Assembly: GCA_031261985.1 (NCBI GenBank)
Contig: JAISIR010000008.1
Coordinates: 2,122 to 66,121 of the forward strand
DNA: 64,000 bases
From: Clostridiales bacterium
GTDB taxonomy: Bacteria > Bacillota > Clostridia > Monoglobales > WRBX01
Direction: 5' to 3'
The position numbers were made by a program, and so were the translations under genes. Of this stretch, positions 25,926 to 49,481 are shown piece by piece; positions within the stretch are counted from its first letter, which is position 1; each line of letters opens with the position of its first letter. Below the pieces are notes generated by a model. The model saw only the letters and a list, made by a program, of their open reading frames with translations. It had not been told where the DNA came from and did not search any database.

Positions 25926-25964
25926 AAATCCCTTTTATTGCTTATGCAATGAAGGGGATTTTTT
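25926..25964 (+). terminator. Intrinsic terminator after groEL
   Basis: AAATCCCTTTTATTGC-TTAT-GCAATGAAGGGGATTT stem (with G.U pairs) followed by a T run. Confidence 0.75.
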
Positions 25965-26000
25965 CGAGTGTGATGCAATGATTTTTTGAAACTATAAGAT

Positions 26001-26017
26001 TTAACACAAACTTAACA
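26001..26017 (+). promoter_or_regulatory. TTAACA-N5-TTAACA direct repeat (OmpR/PhoP/WalR-type box)
   Basis: Exact hexamer repeat with 11-bp period, 18 bp upstream of a -35 element. Confidence 0.5.
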
Positions 26018-26035
26018 TAACACATTGAAATTGCA

Positions 26036-26064
26036 TTGACTTTTACGATTAAATGTGATATAAT
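26036..26064 (+). promoter_or_regulatory. sigma-A promoter for the orphan gene at 26097
   Basis: TTGACT-N17-TATAAT with extended TG. Confidence 0.75.
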
Positions 26065-26096
26065 TTTTCTGTAAAAGTTATATCGGGGGAGAAACT

Positions 26097-27242
26097 ATGG
26101 ATGATTTAAAAATACTCCGCGCTGACGGCACGCCTTATCCTGATGCTCGCGTCAAGATGCAAAAAGATTTAAGCTGTTATATCAATCAAGAGTTAGGAAT
26201 AACCAAAGAAAATTTAAAATCAGTTTTAAAAGCGATAGAAAAAAACGCAACAGATTTAGATGCTACCGAGCAAGCCAAGCTTATGGATTCGCTTTTGAAT
26301 GTTTATATCGATTCCGATGTAATTATAGAATTTATGCGAGAAGTCAAGCTTTATTATGGGCAAGAAGAACTACTAAAAGCAAGTATGTATCTTAAAAAGA
26401 GCGACGCTAATGAAATTTTTAAACTAGCTTACGAAAAATTCGGTTTTCATTTAACGAATAATTATGAGAGTAGAATAGACCGACAGATAAGTTCTATCGA
26501 CGATTATTTTCACACGCCGAATCTTAAATATAAAGACAATGATGTCGGACGAAATTCTCTGACTTATTTAATAGATAACGCCAAAAACGAAGAAGCATTT
26601 TTATTCGTCATTTCTAGAATAAAAGAGAATAATTTTGATAAATCTTGGATTCAATATGCGTTAGAAAAAATCGAATTCCCCATTACTGACCATTTTTACA
26701 ACCAATTACTAATGTTAGGGCTTGAAAAATCTCATAAAAAGGTCATGGATGAACTCTATTCAAAACTTCCTAAAAATCAAGACGCTATCACTCCTAAAGA
26801 TTATTTGAAAATGTTAAGGAGTAAACAGATTACTAAAGAAGAATTTGTCGAAAAACTTACTATTAAAGAACGAATTGCTTTTTTGTTAGAAGAAGCTGAT
26901 GTGAAAGACCAAATTTATCTGCTAAAAAATCATTTAGTTAATTACGACTCTCTATTTTTATTGCCGCGTGCCGAAGGTTTAAATATGAGGTATTATTTTG
27001 AATTGCTTAAAAACCGCAAGATTACCAAAGAAGATTTTGCCGCGCTGTTTAACGATAAAACCAAGCTAGAATTATTTAATATTTTAGATGTTCCTGATAA
27101 ACTTTATTTGATAGAACAAAAGGTAATGGATAAGAACTCTTTTGGTAATCGGGAATCAAAATCTGAATTCTTTGATAAAGCCGAGATAGAAGTGCAAATT
27201 AGTTTCATACATCGCCAATTTTCTTTTGTATGGTGCTGTTAG
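26097..27242 (+). CDS. Hypothetical alpha-helical protein with an internal ~60-aa duplication; probably the 5' part of a frameshifted gene
   Basis: Long ORF with its own promoter; no family recognised; repeat pair YLKMLRSKQITKEEF / YFELLKNRKITKEDF. Confidence 0.7.
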   Translation: MDDLKILRADGTPYPDARVKMQKDLSCYINQELGITKENLKSVLKAIEKNATDLDATEQAKLMDSLLNVYIDSDVIIEFMREVKLYYGQEELLKASMYLKKSDANEIFKLAYEKFGFHLTNNYESRIDRQISSIDDYFHTPNLKYKDNDVGRNSLTYLIDNAKNEEAFLFVISRIKENNFDKSWIQYALEKIEFPITDHFYNQLLMLGLEKSHKKVMDELYSKLPKNQDAITPKDYLKMLRSKQITKEEFVEKLTIKERIAFLLEEADVKDQIYLLKNHLVNYDSLFLLPRAEGLNMRYYFELLKNRKITKEDFAALFNDKTKLELFNILDVPDKLYLIEQKVMDKNSFGNRESKSEFFDKAEIEVQISFIHRQFSFVWCC

Positions 27243-27717
27243 TAATTTATCACTTAAGCAAATGGAGGCGATAGAAAATGCGGGTCATAAAGGATATGAT
27301 TCATCATTAACAGGCGTTATTGAATGCCGTTGGAAAAGTGATTGCGGAAGGTGTTCGGTAGAGTCAAATAGGGAAAAACTTAAAAACGGCGTGTTCGGCT
27401 TTTTAAAACTTAATAGTTTGGGAAGTGATGAAGGCGGCAGAACTCATGAGCGATTCCGGCTAGATACTTATCATTGGGCTCCAGATAAAGATTATGATTC
27501 CTCGAGATATATGGACGAACTGGAAAGAGTAGAAAGATGCCTAGGCGGTTATCGCGAATATAAACGAAGCGAAGATGTAGATAAAGCAATAAAGGAGTAT
27601 AAGCAAAGAGTAATAGCTCGCAGGCGGAAGTATAAACCAGTAATCAAAAAGAATATTGCCACTCATGCTAAAGAGTTTAAACTTAACCCAATTAACAAAA
27701 GACGCTATTGTAGATAA
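27226..27717 (+). CDS. Hypothetical protein; probably the 3' part of the preceding gene in the +1 frame
   Basis: Overlaps the upstream ORF, has no RBS, and its frame is open from about 27192; basic C-terminus. Confidence 0.5.
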   Translation: MYGAVSNLSLKQMEAIENAGHKGYDSSLTGVIECRWKSDCGRCSVESNREKLKNGVFGFLKLNSLGSDEGGRTHERFRLDTYHWAPDKDYDSSRYMDELERVERCLGGYREYKRSEDVDKAIKEYKQRVIARRRKYKPVIKKNIATHAKEFKLNPINKRRYCR

Positions 27718-27730
27718 TAGCGTCTTTTTT
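27697..27730 (+). terminator. Intrinsic terminator, probably bidirectional
   Basis: Perfect 13-bp stem AAAAGACGCTATT/AATAGCGTCTTTT plus T run, between convergent genes. Confidence 0.85.
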
Positions 27731-27771
27731 TGTATCAAACATTGCTTGTAACCGTGCTAAATATTGGTTAA

Positions 27772-28068
27772 TTACTCGGCGAACTTAAACTCGTCTTTAT
27801 GTTTTTGTTGGAATAATACAAAAACCGCTTCAGAGATTTTTTCGTCCTCGACAGCCTCAAACATAACCTCTTCGTTCTCGGTTATTTGTTTCATAACAAA
27901 AACTTCGGCTTCGTCTCCGGCTGAATCTTCTGTAAGATTCTCTTCAAACGGAGTGATAAGTGCGTACTCGCCACCATTGTATTCAACGGTATCTAGAAGT
28001 TCAAATTCGATTGTAACTCCGTCGTTATCGGTTAGAGCAACAACTTGGATTTCTTTTTCATCAGCCAT
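27772..28068 (-). CDS. DUF1292-like acidic protein
   Basis: VALTDNDGVTIEFELLDTVEYNGGEYAL; next to ruvX as is usual in Firmicutes. Confidence 0.8.
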   Translation of the reverse strand: MADEKEIQVVALTDNDGVTIEFELLDTVEYNGGEYALITPFEENLTEDSAGDEAEVFVMKQITENEEVMFEAVEDEKISEAVFVLFQQKHKDEFKFAE

Positions 28069-28173
28069 TATAATCTCCTCCTTAGGGATTTTAACTTAAT
28101 GTATAGGTAAATAAAGTTTACATAATTATAACGAGTAGTATATGTATTAGCAAGATTAATGAAAATGTTCGGC

Positions 28174-28605
28174 TTAGCCTATGCTTTTTAAGTAGTCTTC
28201 TAAAATAATCACGGCAGAAAGGACATCGACCGAAGATTTACCTTTTTTAGTGTTGATGCCACATTCTTGCATAATAGAAGTAGCTTGTTTAGTGGTTAAT
28301 CGCTCGTCGTAAAAGGTAATTTTGCAAGCGTGGTTGATAATTTCCAACTGGGTCTTAAGTATTTCGGCAAACGTTTTAGTTTTTTGCGCCCTAAAGCCAA
28401 GCGTGCCATCCATATTTTTAGGCAGACCAACGACGATAGTATGAACGGAGCTATCCTTTGCAAGGCTTGCCACTTTAGTAGCTACAATTTTGGCAGAATC
28501 AGAGATAATTGTATCTAAAGGTTGGGCTATAATGCCAAGAGGGTCGGAAATTGCGACACCTGTTCGTTTATCGCCAAAATCTATTGCCATAATTTTATTA
28601 ATCAT
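28174..28605 (-). CDS. ruvX: YqgF/RuvX RNase H-fold resolvase-like protein
   Basis: MAIDFGDKRTGVAISD, VVGLPKNMDG, YDERLTT, VD..SA..IL. Confidence 0.93.
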   Translation of the reverse strand: MINKIMAIDFGDKRTGVAISDPLGIIAQPLDTIISDSAKIVATKVASLAKDSSVHTIVVGLPKNMDGTLGFRAQKTKTFAEILKTQLEIINHACKITFYDERLTTKQATSIMQECGINTKKGKSSVDVLSAVIILEDYLKSIG

Positions 28606-28651
28606 TACTATAATTGTACCACATATTAAGGGTTATGTCAAGCAAAAGTTT

Positions 28652-30217
28652 TTAGTGTCTAAAATGGCGCATGCCTGTAAAAATCATAGCTATGCCATAT
28701 TTGTTGCATAAATCTATGCTATCGTTGTCGCGAATGCTTCCACCAGGCTGAATTATTGCGGTAATGCCTGCTTTTGCCGCGGTTTCGACACAATCACTAA
28801 ATGGGAAGAAAGCATCTGATGCCATAACCGAGCCGCGAGCTTTATCTTCGCCTGCAAATTTAAGGGCAAGCTCTAGGGCGGTAATTCTGTTGGTCTGACC
28901 AGGGCCGACACCGACTGTTGCGTAATCTTTAGCTAGCACAATTCCGTTGGATTTTGCATATTTAACCGCCAAATATGCGAACCTAAGCTGCTCCATTCCT
29001 TCAGGCGTAGGCTGCTTTGTAGTGACGGTTTTGCACTCGGTTATAAAGCCGGTGTTTAGGTCTTGAATCAACAGACCTCCGCCCACTTTTTTAGTGTCTA
29101 CTCCTATAGTTTTACGCTCGAAATCTGGCAGCTCTAGCACACGAAGGTTAGGCTTTTGCTCGAAAACCTTTAAAGCCTCGGGGGTGTAGCTAGGTGCGAT
29201 TACAATTTCTAAGAAAATTTTGACCATTTCGTTCGCAGTTGCTTCATCAATTTGCGCGTTCGTAGCAACAATTCCGCCGAAGATAGAAACAGGGTCGGCA
29301 TTATAGGCACTTAAATATGTATCGTAAATATTAGTTCCAATGGCTACACCGCAGGGGTTTGCATGCTTTACAGCCACAACAGCTACCTCGCGTGAGTTGT
29401 TTTCTAGCTTGGTTAAATCTTGAACCAAACTTAGTGCCGCTTCGGTATCATTGACGTTATTAAACGAGATTTCCTTACCTTGAATCTGCTTTGCGCCTGC
29501 AATTGTGCCACTAACATCAAGCGGTTCGCGATAGAACGCTGCCGATTGATGAGGATTCTCGCCATAGCGCATATCCTGAGCTTTTTCGTAAGTTAAAGTT
29601 AGTTTATCGGGATACTTGCCAAAATCGCCTTCTTGACGAAGATAGTTGCAAATTAGGGCATCGTAAGCGGCGGTGTGTTCAAAAACTTTGTAGGCAAGCT
29701 CGCGTTTTAGGGCAGACGCCTTCATACCATTTAGAGGAAGCTTGCTATTTAACATATCTAAAACTCGCGAATAATCGGCAACATCGCACACGACAAACAC
29801 GTCTTGCCAGTTTTTAGCAGCGGCGCGAATAGCGGTTGGGCCGCCGATATCTATGTTCTCGATAGCTTGCTCGAAAGTACAATCGGGCTTGCTAATAGTC
29901 GCTTTAAAAGGGTACAAATTAATGGCAACAATGTCGATAGGTTCTACGTTTAACTCGGCTATTTGGCGCATATGCTCGGGGTTAGAGCGCATTGCTAAAA
30001 TGCCTGCGTGAATGTTAGGGTGCATGGTTTTAACACGACCATCTAAACACTCGGGGAAGTTAGTGATTTTAGTAACAGATATAGCGTTTACACCTGCATC
30101 TTGCAATGTTTTTAGAGTGCCGCCAGTAGAAATAATTTCGTAACCTTTTGCCTCTAAACCTTTTGCGAAATCCACCACGCCGGTTTTATCCGACACACTT
30201 ATGAAAGCTCTTGCCAT
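28652..30217 (-). CDS. purH: Bifunctional AICAR transformylase/IMP cyclohydrolase
   Basis: ISVSDKTG, DGRVKTMHP, DIGGP, MRYGENPHQ, KHANPCG, SDAFFPF, GMRHFRH. Confidence 0.98.
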   Translation of the reverse strand: MARAFISVSDKTGVVDFAKGLEAKGYEIISTGGTLKTLQDAGVNAISVTKITNFPECLDGRVKTMHPNIHAGILAMRSNPEHMRQIAELNVEPIDIVAINLYPFKATISKPDCTFEQAIENIDIGGPTAIRAAAKNWQDVFVVCDVADYSRVLDMLNSKLPLNGMKASALKRELAYKVFEHTAAYDALICNYLRQEGDFGKYPDKLTLTYEKAQDMRYGENPHQSAAFYREPLDVSGTIAGAKQIQGKEISFNNVNDTEAALSLVQDLTKLENNSREVAVVAVKHANPCGVAIGTNIYDTYLSAYNADPVSIFGGIVATNAQIDEATANEMVKIFLEIVIAPSYTPEALKVFEQKPNLRVLELPDFERKTIGVDTKKVGGGLLIQDLNTGFITECKTVTTKQPTPEGMEQLRFAYLAVKYAKSNGIVLAKDYATVGVGPGQTNRITALELALKFAGEDKARGSVMASDAFFPFSDCVETAAKAGITAIIQPGGSIRDNDSIDLCNKYGIAMIFTGMRHFRH

Positions 30218-30282
30218 TTTTAAATTTTCTCCTTTATTATATAAATACGCTGCGCGCGAGTAATCGCGCTCTGCTTGTAAAG

Positions 30283-30846
30283 TTATATGTTTAAAATTTG
30301 TTTGACAACTTGAGGAAGAATCATGTGCTCAGCCTGTTGCATCACACGTTTTTGCAAGGTTTCGGGCGTGTCGTTTGGCAAAATTTGTACACATTTTTGT
30401 GCGATGATTTCGCCGCCGTCAACAATATCGTTAACATAATGCACAGTCGCGCCAGTTACTTTTACACCACGATTCAGGGCGGCTTCGTGAACTTTTAACC
30501 CATAAAAACCATCACCGCAAAAAGAAGGGATAAGCGAGGGGTGGACGTTGATAATTTTTTTATCGAAAGTGGTTAGGATATCGCCTTTTAGAATTTTAGT
30601 GTAGCCTGCTAGGACGATTAAATCTATTTGAAGGTCGGTAAGAGTTTTTAACAGTTGCGTATCGTCGTCGATTAAAGCGGTGTCAATTCCTGCAATCCCC
30701 GCCCTTTGCAAGGCATATGCACCAGCTTTGTTAGAGATTACAATGGTAATATATTTAGCTAAATCGTTATCGATTAACGCTTGTAAATTAGTTCCGCCGC
30801 CGCTTACTAAAACCGCTATTCGCTTGTTATTTTCAGTATTGTTCAT
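30283..30846 (-). CDS. purN: Phosphoribosylglycinamide formyltransferase
   Basis: VLVSGGGTNLQAL, INVHPSLIP, GATVHYV; probable start at 30846. Confidence 0.95.
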   Translation of the reverse strand: MNNTENNKRIAVLVSGGGTNLQALIDNDLAKYITIVISNKAGAYALQRAGIAGIDTALIDDDTQLLKTLTDLQIDLIVLAGYTKILKGDILTTFDKKIINVHPSLIPSFCGDGFYGLKVHEAALNRGVKVTGATVHYVNDIVDGGEIIAQKCVQILPNDTPETLQKRVMQQAEHMILPQVVKQILNI

Positions 30847-30893
30847 GAAAATATCCTTTCGGTTATTATTTGCGTTGTGCCACAAAGATGAGA

Positions 30894-31916
30894 TTATAGC
30901 AGGATTATTCCGTCATCGCCAGCAACAACTTCGCCGATTTCGTACGCGCTATCGCCTAAAATTTTTAGTGCAGCATCGGGCTGAGAAGTGGCAATTACCA
31001 TGCCGACGCCCATGTTGAAGGTGTTGTACATCTCGTTTTTAGGAACATTGCCTAGGCGCGAAATCATGTTAAAAATAGGGTGAATTTGAACTTTTGAGGT
31101 ATCAATTTTTGCAGTCATACCATTTGGCAACATGCGCGGAATGTTTTCGATAAATCCTCCGCCTGTGATGTGAGAAATGGCGGAAATGTCGCAATTATCG
31201 ATTAAATTTAGAACTTCTTTAACGTAAATTTTTGTAGGTGTTAAAAGCACGTCGCAAATTTTAGCGCCAAGTTCTTCGGAATATTGATTGATTCTATTTA
31301 GCGCAGAATCGTCGAAAATACCGAAGATTGAGCGGACAAGCGAGAAGCCATTGCTATGTACCCCGCTAGATTTAATGCCGATTAATGTTTGACCAGGCTT
31401 AACTTTTTCGCCCGTTATAATTTTACTTTTTTCGACCGCACCAACGGCGAACCCTGCTAAATCGTACTCGTCTTCGGGGTAAAAGCCAGGCATCTCGGCA
31501 GTTTCGCCGCCGATAAGGCTGCAACCTGCAATAACGCAACCATCTGCTACCCCTTTTACAATTTGCTCAACTTTGTTGGGGTAGTTTTTGCCGACTGCCA
31601 AATAGTCTAGGAAAAACAAAGGCTTAGCCCCGCCACAAACTATATCGTTAACACACATTGCAACGCAATCTTGACCGATAGTATCGTGGCGATTCATGAT
31701 AAACGCTAACTTTAACTTGGTGCCAACGCCGTCGGTTCCACTAACTAACACAGGCTCCTTAAGCTTTAAACTAGATATATCGAATGCGCCGCCAAACCCG
31801 CCAAGCCCGCCTAACACAGCGTTTGACATTGTTTTTGCTACATGTTTTTTGATTAGATTAACGCTTTCGTACCCTGCTTCTACGTCTACACCAGCGTTTT
31901 TGTAATGTGTATTCAA
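30894..31916 (-). CDS. purM: AIR synthetase
   Basis: YKNAGVD, GTDGVGTK, GGETAEMPG, HITGGG, FNMGVG. Confidence 0.97.
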   Translation of the reverse strand: MNTHYKNAGVDVEAGYESVNLIKKHVAKTMSNAVLGGLGGFGGAFDISSLKLKEPVLVSGTDGVGTKLKLAFIMNRHDTIGQDCVAMCVNDIVCGGAKPLFFLDYLAVGKNYPNKVEQIVKGVADGCVIAGCSLIGGETAEMPGFYPEDEYDLAGFAVGAVEKSKIITGEKVKPGQTLIGIKSSGVHSNGFSLVRSIFGIFDDSALNRINQYSEELGAKICDVLLTPTKIYVKEVLNLIDNCDISAISHITGGGFIENIPRMLPNGMTAKIDTSKVQIHPIFNMISRLGNVPKNEMYNTFNMGVGMVIATSQPDAALKILGDSAYEIGEVVAGDDGIILL

Positions 31917-31919
31917 GAA

Positions 31920-33491
31920 TCAAACCTCTTTCCCTAAACATTTATCTTTGTGAACTCGTTCGTAATCTTCGGGTACTTCTATAGGATACTCGCCCGAGAA
32001 GCAACCATTGCAAAAGGTAGGTGCGTCAGAATCGCATTTGACTAGGTTATGCAGCGAATCGATGCTTAAAAAGCCTAAACTATCGGCACCAATTAACTTG
32101 CAAATTTCATCAATCGTGTATTGGTTGGCGATTAAATCGTCGCGCGAGGGGATGTCGGTGCCAAAGTAGCAAGGGTGCTTAAAAGGCGGCGCGCTAACGC
32201 GCATGTGAACCTCTTTTGCTCCAGCTTTTTTAAGCAGATTTATGATTCGGCGGCAGGTGGTGCCTCGAACGATGCTATCGTCTACCATAACAACTTTTTT
32301 ACCATTAACCGTCTCTTTTAAAGCGTTCAGCTTAATTTTTACGCCATTTGTGCGAAGCGATTGAGTAGGGGCTATAAAAGTGCGGCCAATGTATCTGTTT
32401 TTGATAAGCCCGACACCATATTTAATGCCGCTACGCTTGCTATATCCTATGGCTGCGGTGATTCCGCTATCGGGGACGCCTATAACGATATCTGCATCAA
32501 CTGGGTGTTGATTAGCAAGCTCGATACCTGCGCGAATCCTTGATTTATACACGCTTACGCCGTCGATGTAACTATCGGGACGCGCAAAGTAAATATATTC
32601 AAAAATGCAATTAGTACGCTGCTTAGGCTGATTTGTTAGGCGATAACTGGTCATTTTACCGTCTACTATTGCAATCATCTCGCCTGGTTCGACATCGCGA
32701 ATAAACTCGGCACCAACAGCGTCTAACGCGCAACTTTCGGAAGCAAAAATAATGCTATCGCCAATTTTACCCATACAAAGCGGGCGGAAACCGTGAGGGT
32801 CGCGGACGGCAATGAGTTTACGCGGAGTCATAATCAAAAAGCAATATGCACCTTCAATTTGCTCGATAACTTTAGGGATAGTTTCTTCAATTGAGTTATT
32901 TTTACCACGTTCCTTGGCAATTAAATAACTAACCACCTCGGTATCGCTTGTAGAATGGAAGATGGCGCCGTCGGCAATTAGTTTATCTTTGATTTCGGCT
33001 ACATTGCTAATATTCCCGTTGTGCGCGATGGTTAATGGACCGTTCATGTATTGGGTAACCAAGGGTTGAGCGTTCTCGCGGAAGCTATCGCCAGTGGTAG
33101 AATAACGAACGTGACCGATTCCTGAAGAACCTTTACCAAGTTCTTGTAAAGTTTTAGATGAAAAAACATCGGCAACTAAGCCCATATCTTTATGATAGGT
33201 GATAATTCCGTTGTCTTTGACTGCAATGCCACAACTTTCTTGACCGCGATGTTGCAAGGCGTATAGACCAAAATAGATTAATTCAGAAGCTGCGATATCA
33301 TCATTTGGTGCGCCAGAAACACCGAAAATCCCACATTCTTCCTTGGGTTTGTTGTCTTGTAAAGTAGAACAGCTTTCACTGTTTTGCGGCGTATTATTTT
33401 GCGGATAATCGTGTAAAGCCGAACAGCCTGCGCACGTGCTACAGTCGTAGCAACTCGAGACAGAATCAAGATTTTTTTCGTTATTATTCAT
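31920..33491 (-). CDS. purF: Amidophosphoribosyltransferase with a long Cys-rich N-terminal extension
   Basis: EECGIFG, LQHRGQES, GHVRYST, VDDSIVRGTT; Fe-S Cys motifs CIFEY, PCYFG, CNGC. Confidence 0.96.
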   Translation of the reverse strand: MNNNEKNLDSVSSCYDCSTCAGCSALHDYPQNNTPQNSESCSTLQDNKPKEECGIFGVSGAPNDDIAASELIYFGLYALQHRGQESCGIAVKDNGIITYHKDMGLVADVFSSKTLQELGKGSSGIGHVRYSTTGDSFRENAQPLVTQYMNGPLTIAHNGNISNVAEIKDKLIADGAIFHSTSDTEVVSYLIAKERGKNNSIEETIPKVIEQIEGAYCFLIMTPRKLIAVRDPHGFRPLCMGKIGDSIIFASESCALDAVGAEFIRDVEPGEMIAIVDGKMTSYRLTNQPKQRTNCIFEYIYFARPDSYIDGVSVYKSRIRAGIELANQHPVDADIVIGVPDSGITAAIGYSKRSGIKYGVGLIKNRYIGRTFIAPTQSLRTNGVKIKLNALKETVNGKKVVMVDDSIVRGTTCRRIINLLKKAGAKEVHMRVSAPPFKHPCYFGTDIPSRDDLIANQYTIDEICKLIGADSLGFLSIDSLHNLVKCDSDAPTFCNGCFSGEYPIEVPEDYERVHKDKCLGKEV

Positions 33492-33970
33492 TATATATCC
33501 AGTCCTTTATCAATTTTTTCAATTGTGTCAGACATGTCTTGTTTAAATTCAATTAATTTGTTGGTCAAATCATCGTTATTTAATGCTAAAATTTCAATGG
33601 CTAAAATGGCTGCATTTTCGGCACCATCAATAGCAACGGTGGCGACGGGTATACCTTTAGGCATTTGGACGGTAGAAAGAAGGCTGTCGAGCCCGTCCAT
33701 TGTGGAAGATTTTATAGGAAGACCGATAACAGGAAGGGTGGTAAAAGCTGCGATAACACCTGCTAAATGCGCGGCTTTCCCGGCAGCGGCGATGATAACA
33801 TTTGTTCCGTTTGCACGCGCATTTTTTGCAAAATCTGCAGCGCGGTCGGGCGTTCTATGAGCAGAAATAACGTTGACAGTGTAGGGAATGTCAAACTTTT
33901 TTAGCATATCAACAGATTTTTTTACAATGGGTAAATCAGAATCGCTTCCCATAACTATAGCGACATTCAT
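33491..33970 (-). CDS. purE: N5-CAIR mutase
   Basis: VMGSDSD, SAHRTP, AGKAAHLAG, VQMPKGIPVATV; ATG at 33970 after GGAGG. Confidence 0.96.
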   Translation of the reverse strand: MNVAIVMGSDSDLPIVKKSVDMLKKFDIPYTVNVISAHRTPDRAADFAKNARANGTNVIIAAAGKAAHLAGVIAAFTTLPVIGLPIKSSTMDGLDSLLSTVQMPKGIPVATVAIDGAENAAILAIEILALNNDDLTNKLIEFKQDMSDTIEKIDKGLDI

Positions 33971-34012
33971 GTTAATAACCTCCGAAAATTCATCAAAATT
34001 CAACACAATTTT

Positions 34013-34042
34013 ATTATATCATTTTAGTTGAGAAGTTGTCAA
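34013..34042 (-). promoter_or_regulatory. sigma-A promoter of the pur cluster
   Basis: TTGACA-N18-TATAAT with extended TG. Confidence 0.65.
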
Positions 34043-34120
34043 GGCTTTATTGTAAAAATTACGATTTTTTTTATTAAGTTGATTTATATTTTATTGTGTG
34101 TTTAAAATTTAAAATTAATC

Positions 34121-34149
34121 TTGACATATTTTGCATATAAATGTATAAT
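34121..34149 (+). promoter_or_regulatory. sigma-A promoter of cysS
   Basis: TTGACA-N17-TATAAT. Confidence 0.8.
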
Positions 34150-34269
34150 AGGAATAGATTTTTGCGAGCTTGTCCGCAAAAATTTCAAAATTACTTTAGA
34201 AGTGAAAGCGGATTCATTCCGCTGAAGCGTATTTGTTCAATAGAAAATATTAAAGGTAAGGTGAATTTT

Positions 34270-35670
34270 ATGAAATTGTACAACGATTTAACATTAAATA
34301 AAGACGAATTTATCCCGATTGAATCAGGAAAAGTTAAAATGTATTCGTGCGGCCCAACGGTTTATAATTATTTTCATATAGGTAATGCACGTCCGTTTAT
34401 TTTATTTGATGCGCTTAGAAAATTCCTTGAGTTCAAAGGGATTCAAGTAGATTTTGTACAAAATTTTACCGATGTAGACGATAAGATGATTAATAAGGCT
34501 GCAGAAATGGGGATTTCGGTAAAAGAGTTAGGCGATATGTTTATCGAAGAATACAAGAAAGATGCGAGTGCGCTTGGGATTTCGCCGCCTACTTATGCTC
34601 CGCGTGCAACTGAAACTATTGATGAAATTATTGATATGGTTAAAGTTTTGGTTGATAAAGGATTTGCTTATGAAGTCGATGGTGATGTTTATTTTTCTAC
34701 CAAAAAATTTGCGGATTATGGTGCGCTTTCGCATAAGAATTTAGATGATTTATTAGAAGGTGCGCGAATTGCGGTCGGCGAAAAAAAGCAGGATAATGCT
34801 GACTTTGCTGTCTGGAAAGCGCAAAAGACAGATGACGAAATTGCGTGGGATAGTCCTTGGGGGAAGGGGCGTCCTGGCTGGCATATTGAGTGTTCGTGCA
34901 TGGCGAAAAAATTCTTGGGTGACACAATCGATATCCATACCGGTGGGCAAGATTTGATTTTTCCTCATCACGAAAACGAGATTGCGCAGAGCGAGGCAAG
35001 CAATGGTGTAAAATTTTCTAATTTTTGGATTCATAATGGATATATCAATATTGATAACAAAAAAATGTCGAAATCGGCTGGAAATTTCTTTACTGTCCGT
35101 GAAATTTTAAAGGATTTTGACGGTGAAATTGTTCGATTCTTTATGCTAAGTAGTCATTATCGTAGCCCTATAAATTTTTCGTTCGAGTTGATGAATCAGG
35201 CAAAATCTGGGTTAGAGCGTATTTATACTTGCTTGAGCAATATTGATTTTGAACTTAAAAATGCTGCTGGAATTGATAAAAGAAATGATGTCGCTAATTT
35301 TGACGAATATTCTAAGCAATTTAGTGATGATTTTGTATCGGCACTTGATGATGATTTTAACACAGCCTTAGCTATATCTTCGATTTTTGAATTTGTAAGG
35401 TTGGTTAATAGCGATATTCATGAGTTAAGTAAAAATCAGCTTAATGCAGCAAAAGCTTTAATCTTAAAACTGGGTAAAGTACTTTCGCTTTTTAATAAAA
35501 ATGTTGAACAGAATGAAAGTAAAGTTGATGACGATGTTGAAAAACTAATTAAGGAACGCGAAGATGCGCGAAAGGAAAAGAACTTTACACGCGCAGATGA
35601 GATTCGTGAAATCCTTAAAAACAAAGGAATTATTATTGAAGATACTCCAATGGGAACGAAAATCGTGTAA
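34270..35670 (+). CDS. cysS: Cysteine--tRNA ligase
   Basis: CGPTVY, HIGN, GRPGWHIEC, HHENE, KMSKS; ATG at 34270 (the upstream ATG lies in the promoter). Confidence 0.98.
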   Translation: MKLYNDLTLNKDEFIPIESGKVKMYSCGPTVYNYFHIGNARPFILFDALRKFLEFKGIQVDFVQNFTDVDDKMINKAAEMGISVKELGDMFIEEYKKDASALGISPPTYAPRATETIDEIIDMVKVLVDKGFAYEVDGDVYFSTKKFADYGALSHKNLDDLLEGARIAVGEKKQDNADFAVWKAQKTDDEIAWDSPWGKGRPGWHIECSCMAKKFLGDTIDIHTGGQDLIFPHHENEIAQSEASNGVKFSNFWIHNGYINIDNKKMSKSAGNFFTVREILKDFDGEIVRFFMLSSHYRSPINFSFELMNQAKSGLERIYTCLSNIDFELKNAAGIDKRNDVANFDEYSKQFSDDFVSALDDDFNTALAISSIFEFVRLVNSDIHELSKNQLNAAKALILKLGKVLSLFNKNVEQNESKVDDDVEKLIKEREDARKEKNFTRADEIREILKNKGIIIEDTPMGTKIV

Positions 35671-35687
35671 AGTAATTATGCTTTACT
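35666..35687. repeat. GTAAAG-N8-CTTTAC palindrome, copy 1
   Basis: GTAAAG TAATTATG CTTTAC, overlapping the cysS stop codon. Confidence 0.8.
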
Positions 35688-35730
35688 TAGTTTCGATTTA
35701 ATATTCGCGGATATAAGGGGAAGTATAAAT

Positions 35731-36144
35731 ATGAACGAAAATGATAAAAATATTTATAAATGCAATGTGTCTGCGGAAAATTTGAAGACATTAAACTCGG
35801 TTACTTTGGCATATATAGGCGATAGCATATACAATTGGTATATTAAAAAAAGGTTGCTAGAGCAAGGGATTAAGACGATTGGCGAGCTTCATAAAAATGC
35901 TAGCTATTTGGCAAGTGCCAAGTGTCAATCGCTAATTTATGATGAGCTGCAAAGCCTGCTGGAACCAGATGAAATTGATGTTTTAAGACGTGGTAGGAAT
36001 GCAAAATCGACTGTTCCGAAAAGTGCGACTGTTGAAGAGTATAAAAAAGCGACGGCTGTGGAAGCTCTGTTAGGATACATCTACATAAAAGGTGATTTCG
36101 ACCGTTTGGGTTATTTATTGGAAAATGCTATAAAAATTAGTTGA
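35731..36144 (+). CDS. mrnC: Mini-ribonuclease III
   Basis: LAYIGDSIY, RRGRNAK, YKKATAVEALLGY; follows cysS as is usual. Confidence 0.92.
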   Translation: MNENDKNIYKCNVSAENLKTLNSVTLAYIGDSIYNWYIKKRLLEQGIKTIGELHKNASYLASAKCQSLIYDELQSLLEPDEIDVLRRGRNAKSTVPKSATVEEYKKATAVEALLGYIYIKGDFDRLGYLLENAIKIS

Positions 36145-36250
36145 TATTAATGGGGGGTAAGCCTTTTTGCTTGCAACTATAACGTTAGTGACATAATTTA
36201 TCAACGTCCAATAATTCTGAAAAACGCACCTTTTATCCGAGGTGTAGTGT

Positions 36251-37069
36251 ATGAAAAAGATATTATTATTGACTTTAGGAGATGCGTTATTAGCTTTTAG
36301 CATAATGCATTTTTTAATTCCCGCTAAGCTTGCGACGGGCGGTGTTAGCGGCTTAGCCTCGGTAATTTACTTTGTCACTGGCTGGCAAGTGGGTATTATG
36401 GTTTTTATTTTAAACATACCTATTTTTATTGCCGGGTGGATTTCGTATGGAAAAAAGTTTGTTGTAAAATCGCTTTATAGTACAATAATGCTATCAGTTT
36501 TTCTTACTCTATTCGAGTTTATCCCGATAATTCACTACGACGCGCTACTTTCGAGCGTATATGGTGGCGCAATAGGTGGTTTAGGGATGGGGATATCGTT
36601 TTTAGCAGGCGGAACCACGGGTGGAACGGACATAATCGCCAAAATTCTCAATAAAAAAACACCTAATATATCGATTGGGAATTATGTACTTTTAATTGAT
36701 GCTCTTATTATTGCCGCGACTTGCGTGGCGGTAAGCGATTTGAACGCTGGATTATACTCGGTTATTGCGCTATTTATAAATGCAAAAGTTATTGATATAG
36801 TTTTGCAAGGTACAAATTTTGCCAAAATGGCGATGATTGTTACAGATAAGACTGAAGAAATAATAGCAAACATCCATGAAAAATTGCAGCGTGGAGCTAC
36901 TAAATTGCAGGGAAAGAGGACGTTTAGTAGAAGGAATACAGAAGTTATTTTTTGCACAGTAGGGAATAATCAAGTTGTTAAATTGAAAAAGCTTGTGACG
37001 ATGATTGATGAAAATGCTTTTATTGCGATAACCGATGCGCGAGAAGTAGTTGGTAGGTGGAATAGGTGA
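36251..37069 (+). CDS. YitT-family membrane protein
   Basis: LATGGVSG, GGTTGGTDI, RGATKLQG, DENAFI. Confidence 0.88.
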   Translation: MKKILLLTLGDALLAFSIMHFLIPAKLATGGVSGLASVIYFVTGWQVGIMVFILNIPIFIAGWISYGKKFVVKSLYSTIMLSVFLTLFEFIPIIHYDALLSSVYGGAIGGLGMGISFLAGGTTGGTDIIAKILNKKTPNISIGNYVLLIDALIIAATCVAVSDLNAGLYSVIALFINAKVIDIVLQGTNFAKMAMIVTDKTEEIIANIHEKLQRGATKLQGKRTFSRRNTEVIFCTVGNNQVVKLKKLVTMIDENAFIAITDAREVVGRWNR

Positions 37070-37077
37070 TAAGTTAA

Positions 37078-37153
37078 TGTAAAGCAGAATTGCTTTACTA
37101 AAAAACGTGCGATGATTTATACCAAAAAACAAGTAAAGCAATTAAGCTTTACT
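37078..37153. repeat. GTAAAG-N8-CTTTAC palindrome doublet (copies 2 and 3)
   Basis: Copies start at 37079 and 37133, between the convergent yitT and galU genes. Confidence 0.85.
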
Positions 37154-38036
37154 TGTTGATATCATAGATTGTTTGCTTTAAAAATTTCAAAAAATCATCT
37201 TTTAAATCGTCGCGTCGCAGAGCATATTCCACAATTGCCTGAATAAATTCTTGTTTATTGCCTAAATCGTAGCGTCTGCCGTTGAAGATGTACGCTTTCA
37301 TTTTTTCTGACTTTGCCAAGGTATTTAACGCATCGGTAAGCTGAATCTCGCCACCGCTACCTGGTTTTGTTTCTTCTAAAATACTAAAAACTTCGGGGTT
37401 AATTACATATCTGCCTAAAATTGCAACATTGCTCGGAGCGGCATCTACGCTAGGTTTTTCTACCAATGAATCGACACTATAAATGCTTGGCTCAATCAAT
37501 TTGCCGTCGACTATTCCATACTTGTTAACGTTTTCGCGTGCGACTTCTTGAACGCCAAGTACGCTGACTCCGCTATTATCATACACATCTATTAGTTGCT
37601 TAAGGCAAGGAGTTTCCTGGTTATTCGTGTACACCACATCGTCGCCAAGCATAATTGCAAATGGTTCGTTACCCACAAAACTTTTGGCGTATAAAATGGC
37701 GTTGCCTAAGCCTTTCATCTCTTTTTGACGGATGTAATGGATATTTGCAAGGTTAGAAATCGCTTGTAATTCCTGCAACATCTCGGTCTTTCCAGAGTTT
37801 TCAAGTTCGGTTTCAAGCTCGTAAGATTTATCAAAGTGGTCCTCGATAGCTTTTTTAGTGCGCCCAGAAATTATAAGAATATCCGTGATTCCGCTGGCAA
37901 CTGCCTCTTCGACTATAAGTTGAATGGTAGGAATGTCTATCACGGGCAACATTTCTTTAGGCACAGCCTTGGTTGCAGGTAAAAATCGTGTGCCTAAGCC
38001 TGCCGCTGGGATAACTGCCTTGGTAACTTTTTGCAT
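37149..38036 (-). CDS. galU: UTP--glucose-1-phosphate uridylyltransferase
   Basis: PAAGLGTRFLPATK, KEMLP, LGDD, VEKP, GEIQLTDA. Confidence 0.97.
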   Translation of the reverse strand: MQKVTKAVIPAAGLGTRFLPATKAVPKEMLPVIDIPTIQLIVEEAVASGITDILIISGRTKKAIEDHFDKSYELETELENSGKTEMLQELQAISNLANIHYIRQKEMKGLGNAILYAKSFVGNEPFAIMLGDDVVYTNNQETPCLKQLIDVYDNSGVSVLGVQEVARENVNKYGIVDGKLIEPSIYSVDSLVEKPSVDAAPSNVAILGRYVINPEVFSILEETKPGSGGEIQLTDALNTLAKSEKMKAYIFNGRRYDLGNKQEFIQAIVEYALRRDDLKDDFLKFLKQTIYDINK

Positions 38037-38146
38037 TATGTATTTTCCTTTCTTTAACTATCGATTTCTCTTATAATTTATATATTAAAAATATAAAAAG
38101 GTGAAGAAGCGAATCCCCACCCTTATTAATTTTTAGTTAATATGTA

Positions 38147-38497
38147 TTAAGCCAAGCCGCGACCAAGAACAGGAGTAGCCTTAACTTCTGCAGTTTTAAG
38201 AGCGGCAGCTTGAGTTTTAGATTTATCGGCAATTTTAAGAGCCTCATTAATTTTTGTATTCATAACTATAAATAGTTTCTCAAATTTTGGGAAATATTGA
38301 GAAAGATGGTCAAAAAGTTCTGGCTGAAATAAAGTACCATTTTCACCTTTAGGCATGCGAGCATCAAAATAATGTAGCATTGCCTCTTTTTTAGCTTGCA
38401 TTTTAAGATTAGGTTCCATTTCTAAAATAAATAAACCTAAAGCTTTACTATTTTTAAATTGCTTGCCTGTGCTAGTCATCTCTTTTGTCATTTTCAT
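38147..38497 (-). CDS. Hypothetical protein (116 aa), no family recognised
   Basis: ORF with its own promoter and a G-rich pre-start sequence. Confidence 0.65.
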   Translation of the reverse strand: MKMTKEMTSTGKQFKNSKALGLFILEMEPNLKMQAKKEAMLHYFDARMPKGENGTLFQPELFDHLSQYFPKFEKLFIVMNTKINEALKIADKSKTQAAALKTAEVKATPVLGRGLA

Positions 38498-38571
38498 TTT
38501 AAAGACCCCCGATACTACTTTTGTGTTTGTCTGCCTAATAGTTAGACGTGCAGATAAACACTATACATCAT

Positions 38572-38599
38572 TGTAATACTTCTGTAACATTATTGTAAC
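38572..38599. promoter_or_regulatory. Triple direct repeat TGTAAT-N5-TGTAAC-N5-TGTAAC
   Basis: 11-bp period; overlaps the predicted start site of the 38497 gene. Confidence 0.55.
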
Positions 38600-38602
38600 T
38601 CA

Positions 38603-38632
38603 ATTATAACATAAGGATATGATACCTGTCAA
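38603..38632 (-). promoter_or_regulatory. sigma-A promoter for the orphan gene at 38497
   Basis: TTGACA-N18-TATAAT with extended TG. Confidence 0.7.
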
Positions 38633-38648
38633 GTCTTTTTTAAAAAAT

Positions 38649-38665
38649 TTAACATAAAATTAACA
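38649..38665. promoter_or_regulatory. TTAACA-N5-TTAACA direct repeat
   Basis: Exact hexamer pair, 16 bp upstream of the minus-strand -35. Confidence 0.5.
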
Positions 38666-38746: not shown

Positions 38747-38775
38747 TTGACATAACCTCGAGTATATTATATGAT
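38747..38775 (+). promoter_or_regulatory. sigma-A promoter of murC
   Basis: TTGACA-N17-TATGAT. Confidence 0.7.
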
Positions 38776-49453: not shown

Positions 49454-49481
49454 TTTACAATTGTGTTACAAACCCTTTACA
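49454..49481 (+). promoter_or_regulatory. Triple direct repeat TTTACA-N5-GTTACA-N5-TTTACA
   Basis: 11-bp period in the pgk leader. Confidence 0.5.

Follow-up and report, generated by a model that had tools for sequence, protein, structure and literature searches.

A short tandem box, TTAACA-N5-TTAACA, recurs at about 106 sites in the genome of a Clostridiales bacterium and is found mostly ahead of genes that match no protein family. Our interest in it began with a 64,000-nt stretch of contig JAISIR010000008.1 (positions 2,122 to 66,121; referred to here as the window), in which two genes without recognizable relatives, orphan 1 and orphan 2, each carry an exact copy. From the pattern of these sites, we consider it probable that one regulator reads the tandem box and activates a large lineage-specific regulon of mostly orphan genes, both orphans included. 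An earlier reading of the window (the original prediction) had proposed that the two orphans belong to a co-regulated, lineage-specific family, possibly of secreted effectors or defence factors, that shares regulator boxes and a private 17-nt translational control element in the leader. All of the sequence features on which it drew were recovered at their positions, so that its observation is confirmed, and its interpretation is supported in part: the dispersed regulon appears to be real and far larger than was supposed, while the leader likeness appears to be a product of chance.

The analysis covers a single metagenome-assembled genome of 1.44 Mb in 21 contigs (40% G+C), with the reversed genome sequence as the control for box counts. 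The exact box occurs in 61 copies in the genome versus 1 in the control. Thirty related genomes contain 0 to 6 copies each, and the only one of them that belongs to the same family contains 3. A weight matrix applied with a threshold of >14 bits returned 127 matches in 106 clusters, compared to 6 matches in the control. Ninety-four of the 106 sites are intergenic, and 92 are followed by a good -10 element. Alignment of the copies yielded the consensus aAAAT-TTAACA-cAAAT-TTAACA-TAAa, followed by ~14 unconserved bases, TTGnAA, 17 nt, and TGgTATAAT. The spacing of the hexamers is strict: among neighbouring TTAACA pairs within 40 nt of each other, 61 were exactly 11 nt apart from start to start and any other spacing occurred no more than 5 times. 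Most sites (88 of 106) scored once on the two-hexamer matrix, are read as two hexamers, and end 18 nt upstream of a good TTGnAA -35 element.

The position of the box relative to the promoter is equally constrained. The distance from the start of the box to the -10 element is 58 to 59 nt in 59 of the 92 promoters. When 203 extended -10 promoters were aligned without selection for the box, sharp peaks of TTAACA were found 24 to 25 and 35 to 36 nt upstream of the -35 element, and the box was present at 59 of them (29%). The main class in this set again lies at 58 to 59 nt, with minor classes at 48 to 50 and 78 to 80 nt; counts at 67 to 70 nt come partly from upstream repeats in longer arrays. The conserved block extends from ~-75 to -50, with the box at -70 to -54. 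The constant box-to-promoter spacing in both promoter sets therefore places the centre of the box near -62, with one face of the helix kept throughout. The bases between the box and the promoter hexamers, including those from -53 to -36, hold no information, which argues that the box copies are not simple duplications, and of 81 box genes, only 14 have paralogues within the box-gene set. Thus, the signals are not private to the two orphans, as had been supposed.

The box also appears to act in either orientation around the same centre. About 12% of the sites are inverted. A strong promoter is found on the inverted side of 16 of the 106 boxes, at 55 to 57 nt in 7 cases, orphan 2 among them, and in other cases at 66 to 67 and 77 to 78 nt. 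Half of these 16 boxes lack a good promoter on their forward side. Because inverted-side promoters recur around the same centre, the opposite orientations of the boxes at the two orphans, which had been pointed out from these two genes alone, are not only correct but meaningful.

The genes behind the box are set apart from the rest of the genome by their family content, composition, and hydropathy. In a set of 1,221 genes from our own rough calls, 79 box genes matched 46 Pfam families at E <= 1e-5, while 79 length-matched other genes matched 113. Twenty-eight box genes were scanned singly (the 20 with the top box scores plus 8 mostly from paralogue pairs), and two of them reached the Pfam cut-off, a GGACT-like protein and a protein with repeats of the RNA polymerase alpha C-terminal domain (alpha-CTD). 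About 70% or more of the box genes are without any family. The recognizable members are greA, a PBP5-type carboxypeptidase, sepF, ftsE, an NlpC/P60 protein, a GT2 glycosyltransferase, an HD-domain protein, and YlmC; weak and doubtful boxes were seen ahead of cysS, rlmN, and era. Box genes are AT-richer, with a G+C content at third codon positions (GC3) of 0.33 versus 0.395 elsewhere, and their products are more hydrophilic (grand average of hydropathy of -0.52 versus -0.20) and enriched in D, K, E, and N. A hydrophobic segment is present in 14% of box genes versus 33% of others. A GGGGG ribosome-binding site precedes 27% of box genes versus 8% of others (p = 2e-6), typically after a 25- to 40-nt leader, and this type of ribosome-binding site appears to be the only class trait in the leaders. 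In a PHROGs search with the 79 box genes, the housekeeping members alone were matched and nothing phage-like was found.

Two large orphan-like proteins, of 668 and 1042 amino acids, carry 2 and 3 copies, respectively, of the RNA_pol_A_CTD domain, and both are driven from box promoters. The 668-amino-acid protein is essentially without relatives in 5.8 billion proteins. The two are located as follows.

C5:20224-20712, - strand; L029:405-2408: 668-amino-acid alpha-CTD-repeat protein
C1:101051-102106, - strand; L014:11305-14430: 1042-amino-acid alpha-CTD-repeat protein

A sub-family of about eight box promoters shares a near-identical 70-nt module with a covarying hairpin (box starts at C11:55748, C5:27465, C10:6820, C13:85637, C17:47831, C3:19470, and C2:53298). 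In this module, the -35 element TTGCAA lies in the loop of the hairpin GCGGATT...AATCCGC, which is followed by a T run, and compensatory changes are seen in the stem (GAGGATT/AATCCTC and GACGGATTT/AAATCCGTC). The module resembles a terminator that has merged with the promoter after it. Outside this genome, a search of genome contigs with the box consensus gave 99 scattered single matches in many phyla. The full promoter architecture gave 40 single matches of mixed origin in metagenome contigs and 0 matches in viral contigs. One metagenome contig, Ga0310691_10088725 (L203; 3.2 kb, 41% G+C), has 7 box-like sites scoring >14, each beside a hairpin. These sites lie between very small acidic open reading frames (ORFs) of 52 to 87 amino acids, and their arrangement relative to the genes is unlike that in the window genome.

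The two orphan loci carry the following features (window positions).

26001..26017, + strand: box 1, TTAACA-N5-TTAACA, forward (TTAACACAAACTTAACA); its flanks fit the genome consensus, centre ~-62
26036..26064, + strand: sigma-A promoter of orphan 1, TTGACT-17-TG-TATAAT; 11/12 match, TG present
26073..26089, + strand: leader motif copy 1, AAAAGTTATATCGGGGG; GGGGG Shine-Dalgarno sequence at 26085-26089, 7 nt before the ATG at 26097
26097..27242, + strand: orphan 1 coding sequence; 381 amino acids, all-helical, without homologue
27190..27717, + strand: +1-frame continuation of orphan 1; 163-amino-acid ORF at 27226-27717, frame open from 27190
27697..27728, + strand: intrinsic terminator of the orphan 1 unit; 14-bp stem, then T run
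38097..38124, - strand: intrinsic terminator of the orphan 2 unit
38147..38497, - strand: orphan 2 coding sequence; 116 amino acids, basic, helical, without homologue
38506..38522, - strand: leader motif copy 2, AAAAGTAGTATCGGGGG; GGGGG Shine-Dalgarno sequence at 38510-38506, 8 nt before the ATG at 38497
38525..38559, - strand: hairpin in the orphan 2 leader, GTTTATCTGC...GCAGACAAAC; whole-leader fold unremarkable, z = -0.37
38572..38599, - strand: triple direct repeat, GTTACA-N5-GTTACA-N5-ATTACA; about +1 to +27 of orphan 2
38603..38632, - strand: sigma-A promoter of orphan 2, TTGACA-18-TG-TATAAT; 12/12 match, TG present
38649..38665, - strand: box 2, TTAACATAAAATTAACA on the + strand; TGTTAA-N5-TGTTAA on the orphan 2 strand, inverted, centre ~-61
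38747..38775, + strand: separate promoter of murC; 25 nt before the murC start

Box 1 has a weight-matrix score of 34.6, ends 18 nt upstream of the orphan 1 -35 element, and starts 58 nt from the -10 element, the modal spacing in the genome; the transcription start of orphan 1 is predicted at ~26071 (+) and that of orphan 2 at ~38596 (-). Box 2 scores 30.5, lies 57 nt from the -10 element, and ends 16 nt upstream of the -35 element of orphan 2. The exact box 16 to 18 bp upstream of an extended -10 sigma-A promoter, as originally described, is therefore present at both orphans. The flanking housekeeping genes are groEL/ruvX-purH on one side and an NTP-transferase gene and murC on the other. Each orphan unit has a terminator of its own as well as a promoter, so that both do stand alone between housekeeping genes. 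Box 2 was also considered as an element of the divergent murC gene, relative to which it lies forward on the + strand. This assignment was rejected on the grounds that murC has its own promoter and that box 2 lies at the canonical distance from the perfect promoter of orphan 2, inverted as boxes are at some other promoters in the genome. The promoter on the orphan 2 side of box 2 scores 13, versus 7.5 on the forward side.

The 163-amino-acid ORF that follows orphan 1 has no ribosome-binding site of its own, and the terminator comes after it. The ORF probably represents the end of orphan 1 beyond a frameshift, which would make one gene of about 540 amino acids in the same transcription unit. 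The same layout is found in a Logan contig that is 100% identical and so provides no independent evidence. A look-up through the GroEL neighbour did not find an independent strain, and its only match was a contig with 100% identity. Upstream of orphan 1, a terminator of groEL was judged by eye to consist of AAATCCCTTT...AAGGGGATTT followed by a T run at 25926-25965 (+), ~35 nt upstream of box 1. If it is read correctly, the orphan 1 cassette would begin directly after the end of the housekeeping operon. This hairpin was not listed by the hairpin scan used for terminators, probably because its loop exceeds the 3- to 8-nt limit of the scan.

Both orphans are true ORFans, genes without relatives, and fit the box-gene class. 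Neither reached the Pfam cut-off, and the two matches of orphan 1, to NPH3 and RST, were weak and sub-threshold. A word-indexed search of 5.8 billion clustered proteins recovered only the query for each orphan, as did an exhaustive phmmer search of 1.84 billion representatives for orphan 1, and no paralogue of either was found within the genome. The original assessment that these genes could be assigned to no family was thus borne out. AlphaFold2 run without an alignment returned helical models of low confidence for the two (predicted local distance difference test scores of 48.6 and 54.2) that were too poor for a fold search. Their GC3 values are 0.29 and 0.21.

The leader likeness had been the starting point for the proposal of shared control. 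The identity of 15/17 between AAAAGTTATATCGGGGG and AAAAGTAGTATCGGGGG is real, and the pattern AAAAGTNNTATCGGGGG occurs twice in the 1.44-Mb genome, at these two genes only. A private translational control element that couples both orphans, for example by binding a small RNA or a protein, would explain this exclusiveness, and it could also draw on the rarity of a C directly before the G run and on the rank of the orphan pair among genes with GGGGG in ribosome-binding position. There are 114 such genes (9%), and in an alignment anchored at the G run, at least 10 of the 12 preceding bases are shared in 8 of 6,441 pairs, the orphan pair being one of the eight (top 0.12% for upstream identity). 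However, at least 15/17 identity within the last 32 nt was found in 441 of 743,590 gene pairs, so that a 64-kb window should contain about one. A genome-wide search with 3 mismatches allowed yielded no third copy ahead of other starts or elsewhere, the near-matches being ordinary ribosome-binding-site contexts. No intergenic sequence complementary to the motif, as expected of a small RNA, was seen at the same tolerance. Rfam has no family in the window, the fold of the orphan 2 leader does not surpass that of shuffled sequence and has the ribosome-binding site unpaired, and the similarity ends abruptly on either side. For these reasons, we read the 17-nt likeness as two GGGGG-type ribosome-binding sites that resemble each other by chance and regard a control element at this place as highly improbable. 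Of the two components of the original proposal, the lineage-specific set survives, with a box at ~106 sites enriched for family-less genes, and the shared translational element does not. The case warns against deducing shared control from short likenesses around ribosome-binding sites.

A pair of hexamers spaced by one helical turn is characteristic of winged-helix regulators of the OmpR/PhoB family. The genome encodes four Trans_reg_C response regulators of this family: a near-equivalog of YycF/WalR, a PhoP/PnpR-like protein with a short PnpS/PhoR-like kinase, a VanR-like protein, and an RppA/CopR-like protein. The response regulator at C2:64035-64787 reached 334 bits on NF040534 (YycF), for which the cut-off is 340, and no kinase of the WalK type was recognized next to it. 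The four regulators are encoded at this locus and at C5:88136-88837, C11:104906-105595, and C12:5295-5924. A strong box follows directly downstream of the PhoP-like pair, a placement that is not significant at a density of one box per 14 kb. We propose that a dimer of a winged-helix regulator, most likely one of these four, would bind the two hexamers on one face of the DNA and, from a class I position, recruit RNA polymerase to near-consensus sigma-A promoters with an extended -10. The genes so expressed would be mostly single-gene units with their own terminators that encode hydrophilic, cytoplasmic-looking proteins without known relatives, joined in the same regulon by known genes such as greA, the PBP5-type carboxypeptidase, sepF, and ftsE. 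Orphan 1 would be a textbook member, and orphan 2 would carry the same box at the same distance in the rarer inverted orientation.

This arrangement can be compared to several known systems. In class I activation with a CRP-type architecture, the site is centred at -61.5. The box resembles such sites in its centre near -62, in the alternatives one helical turn away, in its use in both orientations, and in the intact core promoter, but it is a direct repeat and not a palindrome. Work by Liu and Hulett in 1998 reportedly gave the core site of Bacillus subtilis PhoP as TT(A/T/C)ACA with spacers of about 5 bp. The box has the same TTAACA hexamer and 11-bp phasing and lies forward on the coding strand, and a PhoP/PnpR-like regulator is encoded. 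Pho boxes, however, usually comprise four or more repeats that replace the -35 element, whereas here two repeats, rarely three, lie 18 bp upstream of a good -35 element. No pst or pho family is among the 25 families listed for the box genes, and no phosphate link is evident. The PmrA-controlled effector regulon of Legionella and Coxiella, reportedly described by Zusman and coworkers in 2007, is similar in having an OmpR-family regulator, a tandem repeat with an 11-bp period, and dozens of scattered AT-rich lineage-specific genes. It differs in phylum, repeat sequence, and position, and nothing here shows secretion, so that the comparison is an analogy only.

The closest match in sequence is to WalR/VicR, whose consensus is TGTWAH-N5-TGTWAH (PMC4168254; also PMC9210968). 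Footprinted VicR sites are found on either strand (PMC4168254, PMC9210968), and the whole Clostridioides difficile genome has 29 exact intergenic matches to the WalR consensus (PMC9210968). The reverse-complemented box, TGTTAA-N5-TGTTAA, is an exact instance of this consensus, and both boxes in the window fit it. A WalR-like regulator that falls just short of the YycF cut-off is encoded here, and a few cell wall and division genes (the PBP5-type gene, the NlpC/P60 gene, ftsE, and sepF) have boxes. In contrast to known WalR regulons, which comprise tens of genes, mainly for exported cell wall enzymes, the box is found at ~100 promoters, mostly of cytoplasmic ORFans. Of 150 matches to the WalR consensus in this genome (34 in the control), 61 belong to one variant, TGTTAA/TGTTAA, whose flanks are conserved. 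The box thus shows no degeneracy at the W and H positions, one hexamer variant having been expanded and fixed near -62, and the remaining consensus variants form a separate TGTAAY-type tandem class upstream of surface-protein genes. A regulon of this type was not described in the literature searched, although the searches did yield the WalR consensus.

This second tandem motif, [G/A/T]TTACA-N5-[G/A/T]TTACA, has 46 matches, of which 45 are intergenic, compared to ~0 in the control when the main variants are counted. Arrays of 3 to 4 repeats that overlap or follow the -10 element are frequent, and the motif precedes pgk, guaB, glyA, and many genes for signal-peptide or surface proteins (examples at C1:6388-6415, C16:18494-18521, C6:69448-69486, and C9:51575-51602, the last of which is window 49454-49481). 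The motif may be the true WalR-type operator and act as a repressor site. Orphan 2 has a triple repeat of this kind at its transcription start and probably receives two inputs, from the box and from the repeat, of which the second, at [G/A]TTACA, may be repressive.

Several points weigh against a single activator of this kind. No box was found at the operons of the four response regulators themselves, and there is thus no sign of autoregulation. The box holds ~29 bits of information, whereas 14.7 bits would be sufficient for 106 sites; such an excess is better explained by recent copying of a promoter module, or by a second reader, than by a simple site for one factor. Head-to-tail dimers are not usually indifferent to the orientation of their site. 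The content of the putative regulon, mostly cytoplasmic ORFans, is unlike that of any known WalR or PhoP regulon. Gene calling was crude, and the searches of large protein databases covered three ORFans in all.

Part of this evidence could also be accounted for if the box were a UP-like element read by an alpha-CTD, either that of RNA polymerase alpha or that of a lineage-specific alpha-CTD-repeat protein, with curvature added by phased A-tracts. The element is indeed A/T-rich, with A-tracts every 11 bp (AAAAT...cAAAT...TAAA), and like the UP elements of ribosomal RNA and phage promoters, it is an upstream module at a fixed distance from strong promoters. Both orientations work with the same centre and the helical phase kept. 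Two readers on one site would suit the excess of information, and the genome offers, besides rpoA, the 668- and 1042-amino-acid proteins, both behind box promoters and the former as lineage-specific as the box itself. We nevertheless consider this explanation unlikely. UP elements classically occupy -60 to -40, whereas the box is located farther upstream, with no conservation from -53 to -36, and its invariant C and exact hexamers indicate base-specific reading in the major groove, unlike the contacts of alpha-CTD with A-tracts. The C-terminal domain of RpoA is ordinary (101.7 bits on the family model), yet the relatives are without the box, and most housekeeping promoters in this genome are without it too. 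Another reading, which we rate as quite improbable, dispenses with a dedicated regulator: the box, the core promoter, and the GGGGG site would form a portable constitutive cassette that arrived with, or was copied onto, acquired AT-rich genes. It finds support in the composition of the box genes, in site information twice what is needed, in the about eight promoters with the 70-nt module, in the GGGGG sites that travel with the box-gene class, and in the box-like promoters on unrelated metagenome contigs, one of them with 7 sites among tiny ORFs. Sequences outside the box and the promoter hexamers, however, are unrelated, conserved genes (greA, the PBP5-type gene, sepF, and ftsE) carry the box too, no phage-family matches and no viral contig with this architecture were found, and the strict helical phasing argues for a box-reading protein, whatever its origin. 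A cassette is compatible with regulation by one activator and does not exclude it.

The box could finally be the high-affinity nucleation site of a repressor or silencer of foreign AT-rich genes. Its targets are AT-rich ORFans, and their core promoters are already near consensus, so that activation is not obviously needed. A fixed, helically phased site at ~-62, outside the polymerase footprint, is typical of activation, however, and not of occlusion or spreading, and housekeeping genes such as greA carry the box as well; we therefore hold silencing to be very improbable.

Activation by one regulator remains the reading that we prefer, and it may be extended, tentatively, to an expression system devoted to a proteome that is private to the lineage and evolves fast. 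A master regulator, possibly together with the alpha-CTD-repeat proteins, would read the -62 box at the head of a cassette (box, consensus sigma-A promoter, short GGGGG leader, and private terminator) on roughly 60 to 80 ORFans, about 5% of the genes. If true, this would be a Gram-positive counterpart of the Legionella PmrA-effector regulon in which functionally linked orphans could be found by their promoter alone.

The operator type and the class I geometry are already known. What is new is their scale and use: the box marks ~100 promoters in 1.4 Mb, it is confined to one lineage, its best sites are associated almost only with ORFans, and the promoters are uniform in the manner of a cassette. 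A common operator type, tandem repeats of TGTTAA/TTAACA, can apparently expand in one lineage until it defines a global class of promoters. No part of a genome is less tractable than its orphan genes, and here one short signal joins ~100 promoters, including those of some 60 or more genes without relatives, and ties them to a handful of known transcription and cell division genes. If one regulator reads the box, the whole orphan set would become experimentally addressable at once.

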